From positions 32,001 through 96,000 of the IMG/VR virus record IMGVR_UViG_3300032332_001787: a DNA stretch of 64,000 nucleotides, one strand, 5' to 3'. This DNA comes from a virus (taxonomy: Duplodnaviria; Caudoviricetes). The position numbers and the translations under genes were made by a program. This document shows positions 18,674-54,747 of this stretch, piece by piece. The notes below the pieces were generated by a model. It did no database searches. It saw only the letters and a list, made by a program, of their open reading frames with translations, and was not told the origin of the DNA. The number at the start of each line of letters is the position of its first letter. Positions within the stretch are counted from its first letter, which is position 1.

Positions 18674-18939
18674 TCGGGAATGGTGTAACGGTAGCACAAG
18701 TGACTTTAATAAACTGGAGTGCGTCAAGAGAAATTTTGATGTAGAACCTCTCAAATTCGGGGAACGCTTAACTGCCAATCCCGAGCCAAGCCGGAAACGG
18801 AAGGTGTAACGACTTGACGGGAGGCACCTAAAACTTTTAGTCATGGTGATGGTAAAGTCTAGACTACAAACCGTAAGGGTAGCGAAAGCTATAGTAGTAA
18901 GTGGATCACTTTGTCTAGGTTCAAATCCTAGTTCCCGAA
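18674..18939 (+). tRNA. tRNA-Gln(TTG) interrupted by a group I intron
   Basis: TCGGGAA/TTCCCGA acceptor; spliced loop AGTGA-CTT|TGGA-TCACT. Confidence 0.85.
18707..18901 (+). ncRNA. group I intron (IC3-like, 195 nt) after U34 of tRNA-Gln
   Basis: P/Q/R/S-like CTCAAATTCGGGG, AATCCCGAGCC, GTAACGACTTGAC, AAAGTCTAGAC; ends in G and follows an exon U. Confidence 0.85.
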
Positions 18940-19631
18940 TTTAGTTTTTGCCAATAGCCTCTGCGATTAGTTAATTGGATTCCATATGCTTTAGCCCATT
19001 TACGAACAGAGTTATCTGTTACGTTATATTTTTTAGCTATAATACTCATAGGTATAGTAGCAATTAATTTTTCTAATTCCTCTTTAGATGGTCTTTCTAC
19101 TTTTCTGAGCCATGGTTTAGAAGTTTGTTTGATTTTAATCGGTTTTATCTTTTTGAATCTTTTACCAGCATAGGTATCTGTTTGGCTATGACAATTAGGA
19201 CACAAAAAACATAAATTAGATAATCTATTATCATTAGGAATTCCATTTTTGTGTTCTAGTTGCAAAGATATTTTTTTATTATTCCAGACATCTTTTAATC
19301 CGCATGACTCACACTGATATGGTATTAATTTATTTTGTATAATTCTTTTTTTTATACCACCCCTATTTGTTGTTCCGTTCTCGCAAAAAAATTGATCATC
19401 AGTTTTCTTTGGTGAAAATCTTTTACCTTTATTAGAGCCTCTACCAAGCGAAATGTGAGACATATCTATATTCTCATCTTTAGCTCGTCTTTTTACAGTA
19501 TGGTGGTTTCCTCCTTTATTATTTAAACCAAAATGACGTAGTATATCTGCTATTGTGTTTGATCTACAAACTAGAGTTTGGAATTCTTCTGTAGAAATTG
19601 ACCATATAATACTTCTTTTTTTTCTATTCAT
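18921..19631 (-). CDS. HNH homing endonuclease with N- and C-terminal HTH-like segments
   Basis: CESCG...LQLEHKNGIPNDNRLSNLCFLCPNCHSQT. Confidence 0.9.
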   Translation of the reverse strand: MNRKKRSIIWSISTEEFQTLVCRSNTIADILRHFGLNNKGGNHHTVKRRAKDENIDMSHISLGRGSNKGKRFSPKKTDDQFFCENGTTNRGGIKKRIIQNKLIPYQCESCGLKDVWNNKKISLQLEHKNGIPNDNRLSNLCFLCPNCHSQTDTYAGKRFKKIKPIKIKQTSKPWLRKVERPSKEELEKLIATIPMSIIAKKYNVTDNSVRKWAKAYGIQLTNRRGYWQKLNSGTRI

Positions 19632-19720
19632 GTTTAACTCCTTATTGGTACCATATATTATACACCATTCTGGTGTCTTGACAAGTTGCTTTATTCTGTT
19701 ATAATAGCATAAATCGACGG

Positions 19721-19792
19721 TGTCCGATAGCTCAACGGTAGAGTAGGCGGCTGTTAACCGCTTGGTTCTAGGTTCGAATCCTAGTCGGACAG
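19721..19792 (+). tRNA. tRNA-Asn(GTT)
   Basis: GGCGG-CTGTTAA-CCGCT; TGTCCGA/TCGGACA acceptor. Confidence 0.92.
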
Positions 19793-19797
19793 CTTAG

Positions 19798-19887
19798 GGA
19801 AGAGTGGCAGAGTGGTCATAATGCACTGGTTTACTAAACCAGCGATCTCTTAACCGGGGTCCGTGGGTTCGAATCCCACCTCTTCCG
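19798..19887 (+). tRNA. tRNA-Ser(ACT)
   Basis: CTGGT-TTACTAA-ACCAG, long variable arm, G73, GGAAGAG/CTCTTCC acceptor. Confidence 0.88.
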
Positions 19888-19890
19888 TTT

Positions 19891-19973
19891 GGTAGATTAC
19901 TCAAGTGGACAACGAGGGCAGACTGTAAATCTGCTGGCTATCGCCTTCGGGAGTTCGAATCTCTCATCTACCA
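19891..19973 (+). tRNA. tRNA-Tyr(GTA)
   Basis: GCAGA-CTGTAAA-TCTGC; variable arm; A73. Confidence 0.92.
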
Positions 19974-20054
19974 CTAAGTTGTTGATATGAAAGAACTTAG
20001 GACAAATCCGGCGGACCGGGTTCGACGTAAGTCCTTGCAACATAACGACTTAGG
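19973..20054. repeat. 82-bp repeat R15
   Basis: ACTAAGTTGTT-GATATGA-AAGAACTTAGG / 24 / CGTAAGTCCTT-GCAACAT-AACGACTTAGG. Confidence 0.9.
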
Positions 20055-52226: not shown

Positions 52227-53217
52227 TTATGCAGAATGGTAAGGGTTCTAAGAGAAGAGTTAGTTTAGTTTCTCAAGATACTTGGGATAAAAATTACGAA
52301 AGAATTTTTAGAAAGAAAAAAGATGGGAAGCGTAACGAATCTAAAAGAAAATAAAACACTGTTTATTCCGTGTTCTTGTAAGAGTGAAATTTTAGTGATT
52401 GAATATGACCATGAAATTCAATTGGCTGATTTAGCAATATTTGAGAATTATACAAACTACAGTAATAAGATGTCATTATGGCAGAGACTAAGGTATTGCT
52501 ATAAGGTTTTATTTGAAAAAAAGCCATACGCTGATCAGATGGTGCTTGATAATAAACAACTCAAGGATTTACAAGAATTCCTAAATGAACTTAGCTTATA
52601 AGGTGTATATTATATGGTTATCAAACTCATATCAAGGAGGCTAATCATGGTTGTCAGAACAGCAACAGAATACATGAACGATCAATTAGCTAACAGAGTA
52701 AAATCTCTTCAAAAAGCTTTAAATCAAGCTGAAAAAATAATGAATACCCTTGAGTTAGAAAATCAAAGATTAAAAGACGCTCTTAATAGCCTAGCGTCAG
52801 AAAATAACAAAGGCTATGATCTCAATAGTGAGGCTTTTAATGAGCCAGTGCTTACAGTCTAAGAATAAGAACAAAAGAATAATAACACAAATTGGAGAAT
52901 ACGAATATTTGGTTGAGGGAGAAAGTGATTGGGCTAGATTTGGTTGTCAATCAGACATATCAGTAATAACTTCTGCTAATCTAGATGGTGGGCCATTTCT
53001 AATAGTGGGTGATTCTTTCTTGGGCAAAGGAAGAATATCTTTAATACAAAATATTGACAGTGGGCGTGATGGGTATATAATAATTAAGGTTACTCTATAC
53101 TCACCAAAGGAAAAATCATGATCTCAGAACTAATTCCTGTTATCGGCTACCATCAAGCAATGTTAGTGTCTGGTTATTCAGACTATCAGATTCAACAAAT
53201 AATTAAGGGGTCTACTT

Positions 53218-53403
53218 ATGAGTCAACTTCACAAGAGTAATAAGAATAGAGTTTTCTTGGGTGTTTGTGGGGGAATATCAGAAAGTATAGGAGTGGATGT
53301 TTCTGTAATAAGATTGGGATTTGTTGCTGGTGCAATTTTTACTGGCAGTATTCTTTTCTGGGTTTATTTAATAATGGCGCTGGTTCTTCCAACAGAGGAT
53401 TAA
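53218..53403 (+). CDS. PspC domain protein
   Basis: LHKSNKNRVFLGVCGGISESIGVDVSVIRL...YLIMALVLP. Confidence 0.85.
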   Translation: MSQLHKSNKNRVFLGVCGGISESIGVDVSVIRLGFVAGAIFTGSILFWVYLIMALVLPTED

Positions 53404-53407
53404 TACA

Positions 53408-54025
53408 ATGGATAAGATAGTTGGTCAGAAAGTATTTTTTACTGCTGATCTTCATCTTGGGCATCGGAATATCATAGGATATTGTAATCGTCCATTTTCT
53501 AGTGGTGGAGAGATGGACTCTAAGATCATTTCTTCTATAAACGAAACGGTTGGACAAAACGATATTCTTTACGTCATAGGAGATTTCTGCCATAAAGGCG
53601 GAACTGCTCTATCTTATAGAGAAAGAATAGCCTGCCAGAATGTTCACATTATTCTTGGCAATCATGATGAACCAACTAAATTTACTAGTGGATTCTCTAG
53701 TGTCTCTGATCAGAAAATGATTCTATATATTAATCAAAAAATATTCATGTGTCATTATCCTATGAGAAGTTGGTCTGGTAGCTATAGGAAAAGCTGGATG
53801 CTTTATGGTCATGTTCATGGTAGACTACATCGTGAGGACGTTGCTTCTGGAAGCCTCACGCTTGATGTAGGAGTCGATAATAAAAGAGATGGGGTGGAGT
53901 TTGGTACTCCTTGGAGCTTTAAAGACGTTCAGCAGCAATTTCTGGCGAGAACGAAAAAAAAATCAAGGTCGCCCATTGACATTGACGATACACTGTTGTA
54001 TAATCGAAGGAACAACGCAAGGTAA
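53408..54025 (+). CDS. phage-type metallophosphoesterase
   Basis: TADLHLGH, GDF, GNHD, HYP, GHVHG, DVGVD. Confidence 0.88.
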   Translation: MDKIVGQKVFFTADLHLGHRNIIGYCNRPFSSGGEMDSKIISSINETVGQNDILYVIGDFCHKGGTALSYRERIACQNVHIILGNHDEPTKFTSGFSSVSDQKMILYINQKIFMCHYPMRSWSGSYRKSWMLYGHVHGRLHREDVASGSLTLDVGVDNKRDGVEFGTPWSFKDVQQQFLARTKKKSRSPIDIDDTLLYNRRNNAR

Positions 54026-54085
54026 GATCAGTCATGCGACTGAGCCTTGCTTGTAAGATTGGTTAATAATTTGGAGGATTTTATT

Positions 54086-54370
54086 ATGGCTGAAGTTACT
54101 ACTACAGAGAAGCAGAGTCGTATTCGTTGCAGTGATGACCAGTTCCTTGAGGCAGTTTTTTCCAGCAAGACTTATGCTGAGATTGCGTCAAAGACGGGTC
54201 AGAAGATTGCTAGTACGATGGCTCGTTATGCTCGTACAAAGTCCGCTCTGGTTAAGAAGGGTATTGAACTGCCCGCAATGGAGCGAGCAAAGCCGGTAAA
54301 GACTGTGGATAATGTTGAGGCTATGGCTGAGACTGTTCGCCGTCTAAAGGCCGCTCATTCTAACGGTTGA
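54086..54370 (+). CDS. small HTH-like protein
   Basis: TYAEIASKTG...STMARYAR. Confidence 0.45.
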   Translation: MAEVTTTEKQSRIRCSDDQFLEAVFSSKTYAEIASKTGQKIASTMARYARTKSALVKKGIELPAMERAKPVKTVDNVEAMAETVRRLKAAHSNG

Positions 54371-54472
54371 TTTTAAAACCAAATGCTTCCAACTACATCC
54401 CTCATAAATATTATTAGAGACAACATAGACAAAATCTAACCAATCGTTATGATATGTAGTTTGGAAGTATAT

Positions 54473-54747
54473 GGGGGCTTAATCCAACGGCAGAGATAAA
54501 GGACTTATACAATTTGAGTGCGTAAAGAGAAATCTTTAATGTAGAACCTGTCAAATTCGGTGGAGGCTTAACTGCTAATACCGAGCCAAGCTTAATAGAA
54601 ATATTATGAAGGTGTAGAGACTTGACGGCAGGAACCTAAAACGAAAGTTATGGTTAAGGTAAAGTCCAGACTACAAACAGAAATGGTAACGAAAGTTATA
54701 GTAGTAAGAAAATCCTTCAAGTATCGGTTCGAATCCGATAGCCCCTA
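54473..54747 (+). tRNA. tRNA-Leu(TAA) interrupted by a group I intron; short variable loop
   Basis: GGGGGCT/AGCCCCT acceptor; spliced AAGGA-CTT|AAAA-TCCTT; ATCGG-TTCGAAT-CCGAT. Confidence 0.85.
54507..54708 (+). ncRNA. group I intron (IC3-like, 202 nt) after U34
   Basis: GTCAAATTCGGTG, AATACCGAGCC, GTAGAGACTTGAC, AAAGTCCAGAC; ends TATAGTAGTAAG like the 18707 intron. Confidence 0.85.

Follow-up and report, generated by a model that had tools for sequence, protein, structure and literature searches.

The closest described relatives of the elements reported here are the IC3 introns of bacterial and plastid tRNA-Leu(UAA) genes (the Leu.3Ug type), which have a compact core without P5abc and a short P1, and which are inserted between U34 and A35 of the anticodon loop (CUU/...g/AAAA). 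Two introns with the same features split the tRNA-Gln(UUG) and tRNA-Leu(UAA) genes of a virus of the Caudoviricetes, IMG/VR record IMGVR_UViG_3300032332_001787 (230,097 bp, rated complete by CheckV). Both lie in the stretch of 64,000 nucleotides analysed here, referred to as the window, which corresponds to bases 32001-96000 of that record, and both interrupt the anticodon loop after U34, at CUU|AAAA in the tRNA-Leu and CUU|UGGA in the tRNA-Gln. Their host is a T4-like jumbo phage of fresh water. Judged by their sequences, the two inserts are very probably working, selfish and mobile group I introns of the IC3 type, and not recent copies of each other. This reading draws on family membership by sequence, on the helices and splice junctions, on the presence or absence of the introns among relatives and on the linkage to HNH endonuclease genes, from which splicing, the target of the endonuclease and the route of spread are deduced.

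The seed alignment of Williams (2020) contains bacterial Leu.3Ug introns that have several blocks in common with the window introns, i.e., AAAUUCGG, CCGAGCCAAG, AGUCCAGACCACAAAC and GCGAAAGC..GUGGUAAG. In contrast with the Leu.3Ug introns, the host here is a phage genome rather than a bacterium or a plastid, the host tRNA-Leu has no long variable arm, and the intron has a sister lineage, which is hosted by tRNA-Gln(UUG). A second system, likened to the window introns by its features and not by its sequence, is a compact bacterial tRNA intron of approximately 200 nt, which also has GAAA loops on P2 and P9, a P8 motif that resembles the 11-nt receptor and a location in the anticodon loop; it differs in its bacterial host and in its insertion after position 36 of a different tRNA. 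According to Hausner et al. (2014; PMC3984707), every phage intron then known was located in a protein gene, despite the many tRNA genes found in phages. Devoto et al. (2019; PMC6784885) referred to introns in phage tRNAs as unreported, and left their own unclassified. Williams (2020) raised the number of bacterial intron/tRNA classes from 4 to 21, and the accessible parts of the text and seed file have no mention of phages and no entry for tRNA-Gln. Searches of the open-access literature returned nothing on group I introns located in the tRNA genes of phages. The kind of element, an IC3 tRNA intron, is already known, then, and it is the setting that is poorly documented: phage genomes, a tRNA-Gln host and an escort of HNH genes.

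The two split genes are composed of the following parts:

18674 to 18706, plus strand: 5' exon of tRNA-Gln(UUG), ending in U34 (in-silico splicing and ARAGORN; the U1-A72 pair was read from the sequence).
18707 to 18901, plus strand: group I intron of the tRNA-Gln, 195 nt, with no open reading frame (RF00028, 44.9 bits; covariation; orthologues in nine other viral contigs).
18902 to 18939, plus strand: 3' exon of tRNA-Gln(UUG), beginning with U35 G36 G37, paired with the P10 guide.
54473 to 54506, plus strand: 5' exon of tRNA-Leu(UAA), ending in U34, its last four bases being ACUU (in-silico splicing).
54507 to 54708, plus strand: group I intron of the tRNA-Leu, 202 nt, with no open reading frame (RF00028, 47.9 bits; covariation; 95.5% identical to the intron of contig L093).
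54709 to 54748, plus strand: 3' exon of tRNA-Leu(UAA), beginning with A35 A36 A37 (in-silico splicing).

Searches of small regions with cmscan returned two full-length matches to the Rfam model RF00028 (Intron_gpI), and these are the only group I matches in the 230,097-bp genome; that at 18697-18882 scores 44.9 bits (E 2.2e-10), and that at 54496-54690 scores 47.9 bits (E 2.5e-11). The curated gathering score of this model is 50 bits, and the window copies surface only when an E-value threshold is applied; an Rfam scan of the whole window at the gathering threshold lists only tRNAs and the transfer-messenger RNA (tmRNA), and no intron, because both introns score just under 50 bits. Within the same clades, close orthologues reach 53.7-57.4 bits, and scores elsewhere in the family extend to 98.4 bits. 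An initial annotation of the window had called two homologous, ORF-less group I introns of the IC3 tRNA-intron family in tRNA-Gln(UUG) and tRNA-Leu(UAA), both after U34, and this call was borne out by the RF00028 matches (E of approximately 1e-10 to 1e-11 in the cmscan check that the annotation had proposed) and by in-silico splicing. The two introns are 79% identical, with shared core blocks, and every block that the annotation had quoted was found in both loci, in alignment. No open reading frame of 40 or more amino acids is found on the plus strand inside either intron.

The base that precedes each intron is a U (18706 and 54506), and the last base of each intron is a G (18901 and 54708). 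The in-silico joining of 18706 to 18902 produces a 71-nt tRNA-Gln(UUG) with the anticodon loop CUUUGGA, a U1-A72 end pair and a clean cloverleaf, and the joining of 54506 to 54709 produces a 74-nt tRNA-Leu(UAA) with the loop CUUAAAA, the discriminator A73 and, once again, a clean cloverleaf. The junctions predicted in the annotation, 18706/18902 and 54506/54709, are consistent with these restored 7-nt loops, with the terminal G and with the U at position -1. Independent support for the Gln junction is twofold. In a related phage with a complete genome (G006), the tRNA-Gln(UUG) is uninterrupted and has the loop CUUUGGA, and DNA contigs of two freshwater metagenomes join base 18706 to 18902, with exactly 195 nt skipped, although these joints are weak when taken alone, as each run contributes a single contig, the shorter side of which has 24-27 nt.

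A different pair of splice sites, 18708/18904, would turn the gene at 18674-18939 into an ochre suppressor tRNA(UUA), as in the output of ARAGORN with the -i option, which reports a tRNA-Stop(tta) with i(36,195), and the intron would, in this case, end at 18903 and likewise have a terminal G. It is hard to give this any credence, however, given that the 5' splice site would be preceded by an A rather than a U, which breaks a U.G wobble present in 33 of 33 relatives, and that the family alignment places the terminal (omega) G at 18901. Similarly, P10 fits UGG, the intron-less counterparts read CUUUGGA, and the standard code leaves long reading frames, such as that of rIIA (893 aa), uninterrupted. 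For the first two of these reasons, the misplaced A and the disregarded omega G, the tRNA-Stop(tta) label was rejected.

The fold of the introns was evaluated in an alignment of 33 members of the family (A2), produced with MAFFT, in which six nucleotides of exon were kept on each side, and P1, P2, P3-P9, P9a/b and P10 were drawn on the Gln copy of the window. Standard pairs account for 93.6% of the 1740 cells of P1-P10, in comparison with 79.7% in shuffled alignments and 30-45% (44.6% at the highest) when the partners are slid. Covariation is scored at 0.446, while the shuffled control reaches 0.174 and the slid control at most 0.157. Because the structure was drawn on a sequence that is itself part of the alignment, the slid control is biased in its favour, but the changes on both sides of a pair, which are found in 31 of the 53 pairs, are independent of this effect. 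Helices P3, P4, P5, P6, P7 and P8 pair in 100% of the cells, and five of the six P3 pairs covary. At one P7 position, the pair is A-U in the six members of the clade that contains the Gln intron of the window, and in no others, the remaining 27 introns having G-C. P2 is only 59.6% paired in the MAFFT alignment, although each sequence, read singly, forms a GAAA-capped hairpin by itself, and the shortfall is for this reason attributed to the alignment register.

The lengths of 195 and 202 nt, the core of P3-P9 with no P5abc, the GAAA loops on P2 and P9b, and a receptor-like motif in P8 are features of the IC3 tRNA introns. The P8 motif is CCUAAA/CAUGG in the Gln intron, and its family form, read from the alignment, is CCUAAA.../(U/C)AUGG, which suggests that a tetraloop may dock into this receptor. 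The U.G wobble that closes P1 is found in all 33 introns, and every one of them ends in G; the corresponding bases of the window are U18706/G18717 with G18901, and U54506/G54516 with G54708. The P1 pairing of each exon, which the annotation had left to be checked, is ACUU/GAGU in both introns. The P10 guide CUG (18714-18716) of the Gln intron is followed by the P1 guide GAGU (18717-18720), and the P10 guide UUU (54513-54515) of the Leu intron by GAGU at 54516-54519. All three P10 pairs covary with positions 35-37 of the anticodon loop, with AAA/UUU in Leu, UGG/CUG in Gln, UUA/UAG in Lys and GUA/UAC in Thr.

These patterns also bear on whether the introns may have decayed, with splicing lost and both tRNA genes dead, as the Rfam scores below the cut-off might suggest. 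Such a decay appears very improbable, since lineages with 75-95% identity retain all of the helices through compensatory changes, and the core blocks are invariant. The split genes are, in addition, the only tRNA-Gln and the only tRNA-Leu of a genome with 35% GC, which has 12 tRNA genes, every one of them inside the window, 10 of which read codons that end in A or U.

If the introns are active, as the main interpretation holds, the anatomy of the introns and the established chemistry of group I introns predict the following sequence of events. The pre-tRNA would fold so that A31-C32-U33-U34 pairs with the intron GAGU to form P1, in which the U34.G wobble would mark the 5' splice site for attack by a free guanosine. 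The freed 3'-OH of U34 would then attack behind the terminal G, with the 3' exon held by a P10 of three base pairs (UGG with CUG in the Gln gene, and AAA with UUU in the Leu gene) and the exons kept together by the anticodon stem, and splicing would yield the only tRNA-Gln and the only tRNA-Leu of the phage. Each intron would be inherited with the same kind of tRNA gene, and exchanged between such genes in related phages. As the P1 target CUU (positions 32-34) is common to these tRNAs, a new 3-nt P10 guide would suffice for the intron to be retargeted to another U34 tRNA.

The annotation had further proposed that the intron was transposed between the two tRNA genes of one phage, and that the interruption of the anticodon may shield the gene or its pre-tRNA from nucleases. 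The identity of 79% between the two introns and the GAGU guide of P1 in both are compatible with a recent copy inside this phage, but closer relatives are found in the same tRNA of other phages, with the Gln intron of the window being 80-86% identical to the Gln introns of other phages, and the Leu intron 88-95.5% identical to the Leu introns, the highest value being that of L093. In a maximum likelihood tree of 70 distinct introns, which followed the annotation's suggestion of an intron phylogeny, the two copies are placed apart, with the Gln copy inside a clade of six members, all Gln (support 100/98), and the Leu copy inside a separate clade of ten members, all Leu (support 99/90). Forcing the window introns into sisterhood costs 50.5 log-likelihood units (approximately unbiased test, p = 0.04).

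The distribution of the introns among related phages points in the same direction. The complete genome G001 (166.6 kb) has only the Gln intron, together with an intron-less tRNA-Leu(UAA), and G002 likewise has only the Gln intron; the complete genome G006 (186.5 kb) has only the Leu intron, and its tRNA-Gln(UUG), which lacks an intron, occupies the same Thr-Gln...Asn-Ser slot. Four introns are present in both G003 and G004, including Gln and Leu in each case. Given the separate clades, the closer relatives outside this genome, the result of the topology test and this patchy occurrence, the transposition claimed in the annotation is not upheld for this phage, and the jump between tRNA species predates this genome or occurred elsewhere. 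Within related phages, the introns pass from one allele of a given tRNA to another. The intron tree crosses the types of host gene, grouping L128 (tRNA-Gln backbone B) with L132 (backbone C), as well as the types of variable arm, grouping L013 (long-armed Leu) with L099 (short-armed Leu). The deep nodes are poorly supported, and are compatible with a single origin or several origins of the Gln introns. The jumbo phage records G003 (L140, L142) and G004 (L134, L139, L141) contain further introns, in tRNA-Arg and tRNA-Met, and an ORF-bearing Leu intron.

The putative shielding function, which nothing in the present data supports, can be set against the range of hosts. The Leu UAA, Gln UUG, Lys UUU and Arg UCU tRNAs, all of which are hosts of the family, are frequent targets of anticodon nucleases. 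The bias toward U34 hosts is, however, explained more simply by the common P1 target CUU, and the known anticodon nucleases cut mature tRNA, which is what the spliced product is. A recent copying event within this phage, with the interruption retained as a shield, is unlikely, although it is somewhat less so than either decay or the suppressor reading.

The interpretation of the inserts as mobile introns of an older family is extended by a census of IMG/VR, in which a pattern built on two core blocks was used, and the splice sites were fixed by the rule of a U at -1 and an omega G. The family was found in at least 119 contigs. The matches listed include 74 tRNA hosts other than those of the window, with 61 Leu(UAA), four Lys(UUU), four Met(CAU), two Thr(UGU), two Arg(UCU) and one Arg(CCU), and 84 when the 10 Gln(UUG) hosts, window included, are added. 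The anticodons assigned by ARAGORN to the split genes (Tyr-AUA, Stop-UUA, SeC and others) were dropped once this rule had fixed the splice sites. A Gln-specific pattern recovered from IMG/VR nine further viral contigs, of 19-459 kb, with a tRNA-Gln(UUG) split after U34, on three different tRNA-Gln backbones. The tRNA-Gln host, which the annotation considered to be unusual, is indeed absent from the literature found, but it recurs in these nine contigs.

Among the phage records of GenBank, the Leu locus matches LR756501 and LR756511, two huge metagenomic phages with an unannotated, intron-split tRNA-Leu(UAA), whereas the Gln exons and intron together have no match. The Leu locus is also matched by records of the cultured Agrobacterium phage Atu_ph07 and the Pelagibacter phage HTVC120P. 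In Atu_ph07 (L004; MF403008, approximately 112.9-113.3 kb), an unannotated tRNA-Leu(UAA) has a 278-nt group I intron, and a "hypothetical protein" coding sequence is drawn across the 3' part of the tRNA. In HTVC120P (L006; MH598807, approximately 19.6-19.8 kb), an ORF-less intron of the same family splits the capsid gene, which is annotated as two coding sequences. In the Microcoleus phage My-WqHQDG (L171; OR578706, 84823-85108), a 286-nt "tRNA-Arg" is an intron-split tRNA that was deposited without comment.

In 185,579 bacterial and archaeal species genomes, a narrow pattern found no bacterial tRNA-Gln intron, a result that is limited by the pattern itself. A wider pattern returned 21 loci in the same genomes, with no clean Gln case, nearly all of them being Leu, Arg or Thr introns whose end motif was matched by chance; this result is also pattern-dependent, and the absence of the class from bacteria is not established by it. 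Bacterial Leu(UAA) introns were recovered by the pattern built on the intron core. One doubtful candidate for a split tRNA(UUG) is present in a 5.7-kb contig (JAJFUZ010000185; L155) of a metagenome-assembled genome of Parachlamydia sp., where an intron of the same family is followed by TGGATC..., with acceptor and anticodon stems that pair poorly; this locus may be decayed, or its contig may be non-bacterial.

The spread of the family is probably helped by a gene that adjoins the tRNA-Gln:

18921 to 19631, minus strand: free-standing HNH endonuclease gene, 236 aa (phrog_10822, E 1.3e-41; the Pfam HNH match is weak).

This gene, which the annotation had overlooked, is convergent with the tRNA-Gln, and its last 19 nt overlap the 3' end of the tRNA. 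Homologues with 64-76% identity are likewise positioned at five other Gln-intron genes, one of which is on a different tRNA backbone, and a C-terminal remnant of the HNH protein is encoded beside the Gln-intron gene of L133. A survey of the 66 loci in which the downstream flank extends for 900 nt or more, which were drawn from the matches listed and are not all independent, found an HNH homologue beginning 20-170 nt after the intron in 20 cases (14 Leu, five Gln and one Thr). In LR756511 (L005; approximately 409.2-409.8 kb), an HNH gene lies inside the tRNA-Leu(UAA) intron, and its product is 30% identical to the free-standing HNH protein of the window.

Collaborative homing, in which an intron without an endonuclease gene of its own is associated with a free-standing one, was reportedly described in 2009 by Zeng and colleagues and by Bonocora and Shub, with the cyanophage psbA intron and F-CphI, and the T-even nrdB intron and mobE, as its examples. 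The layout of the Gln locus resembles that of these systems, as an ORF-less phage intron adjoins a free-standing endonuclease gene, and the intron is present or absent at the same site among relatives (the tRNA-Gln of G006 and the tRNA-Leu(UAA) of G001 being intron-less). It differs from the psbA and nrdB cases in that the host gene is a tRNA rather than a protein gene, the cleavage target is putative, and the endonuclease gene is also found beside an intron-less allele (G006) and is absent at the Leu locus of the window. By analogy, the HNH gene just 3' of the tRNA probably assists the spread of the introns through collaborative homing, to which recombination during co-infection probably adds. 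A further parallel is offered by SegB in the tRNA cluster of T4 (cited in PMC13096335), likewise a free-standing endonuclease gene inside a T4-like tRNA cluster that is expected to drive the preferential inheritance of the adjoining tRNA genes; SegB is, however, a GIY-YIG enzyme, whereas the endonuclease here belongs to the HNH family and is associated with intron-split tRNAs.

A number of observations weigh against the reading of both inserts as working, mobile introns with an endonuclease escort. Both fall 2-5 bits below the curated cut-off of RF00028, and the exon part of P1 has only four base pairs. The joints of 18706 to 18902 in the metagenome contigs have a likeness of only 85% on their short sides, and may come from the tRNA-Gln genes of other phages. 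A strict link between the HNH gene and the intron is contradicted by three observations: the HNH homologue of G006 (52% identity over 93 aa) adjoins a tRNA-Gln that has no intron but whose loop sequence is the same, no HNH gene is found in the translated flanks of the Leu locus of the window, and 46 of the 66 loci surveyed have no HNH homologue nearby. The loci counted in the census are not independent either, several of them being near-identical.

A broader scenario is more tentative, and is held at somewhat less than even confidence: a single IC3 lineage may have spread through the U34 tRNAs of large phages (Leu-UAA, Gln-UUG, Lys-UUU, Thr-UGU and Arg-UCU) by little beyond changes in P10, escorted by a dedicated HNH family 3' of the tRNA, with a cassette of "tRNA-Gln with intron plus HNH" taking over the Thr-Gln slot from an intron-less tRNA-Gln in this phage lineage. 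If this is true, the tRNA genes of phages would harbour a sizeable stock of mobile group I introns that has escaped notice, in which the tRNA-Gln class is perhaps confined to phages. A single pattern of the conserved core was enough to recover the family from at least 119 viral contigs, mostly in split tRNA genes among the matches listed. Standard tRNA finders either miss or mislabel such genes, which biases tRNA counts and estimates of codon supply in phages, and a stop-suppressor call of the kind made by ARAGORN could wrongly suggest a recoding of the genetic code. The family also provides natural examples of ribozyme retargeting through a 3-nt guide and, by analogy, a possible tRNA version of collaborative homing that is open to bench testing, with the unannotated Leu(UAA) copy of Agrobacterium phage Atu_ph07 at hand.

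The T4-like character of the host is seen in its rIIA-like and DNA-ligase genes of T4 type, and the metagenomes with DNA runs that cover parts of the phage are from freshwater and lake samples. The tRNA-Gln is preceded by a further tRNA gene:

18600 to 18673, plus strand: tRNA-Thr(UGU) (ARAGORN; Rfam RF00005, 68.2 bits).

There is no spacer between the end of this gene (18673) and the start of the tRNA-Gln (18674), and the same abutment is found in G006. Given that the two tRNAs abut in this way, they are probably made as one dimeric precursor, as in T4. The tRNA-Gln gene does not encode CCA.

The tRNA-Leu(UAA) of the window has a variable loop of five nucleotides in place of the long arm of bacterial tRNA-Leu. 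A short-armed UAA tRNA of this type (73-75 nt, with a 5-nt variable loop, a 3-bp D stem and A73) is also found in L015, L035, L052, L076, L088, L093, L099, L111 and L116; at least two lineages of it recur in viral contigs, and the intron is present every time.

Other genes of the window include a full-length tmRNA gene (RF00023, 72.7 bits) at 47612-47968, which adjoins a tRNA-Ile(UAU) at 47323-47402, and a second HNH endonuclease gene, of 379 aa (phrog_6254/1872), at 2196-3335, in the same early region. The tRNA-Ser at 19798-19887 is assigned the anticodon ACU by ARAGORN, with an A34 that appears to be unmodified, and the same gene is present in G006.

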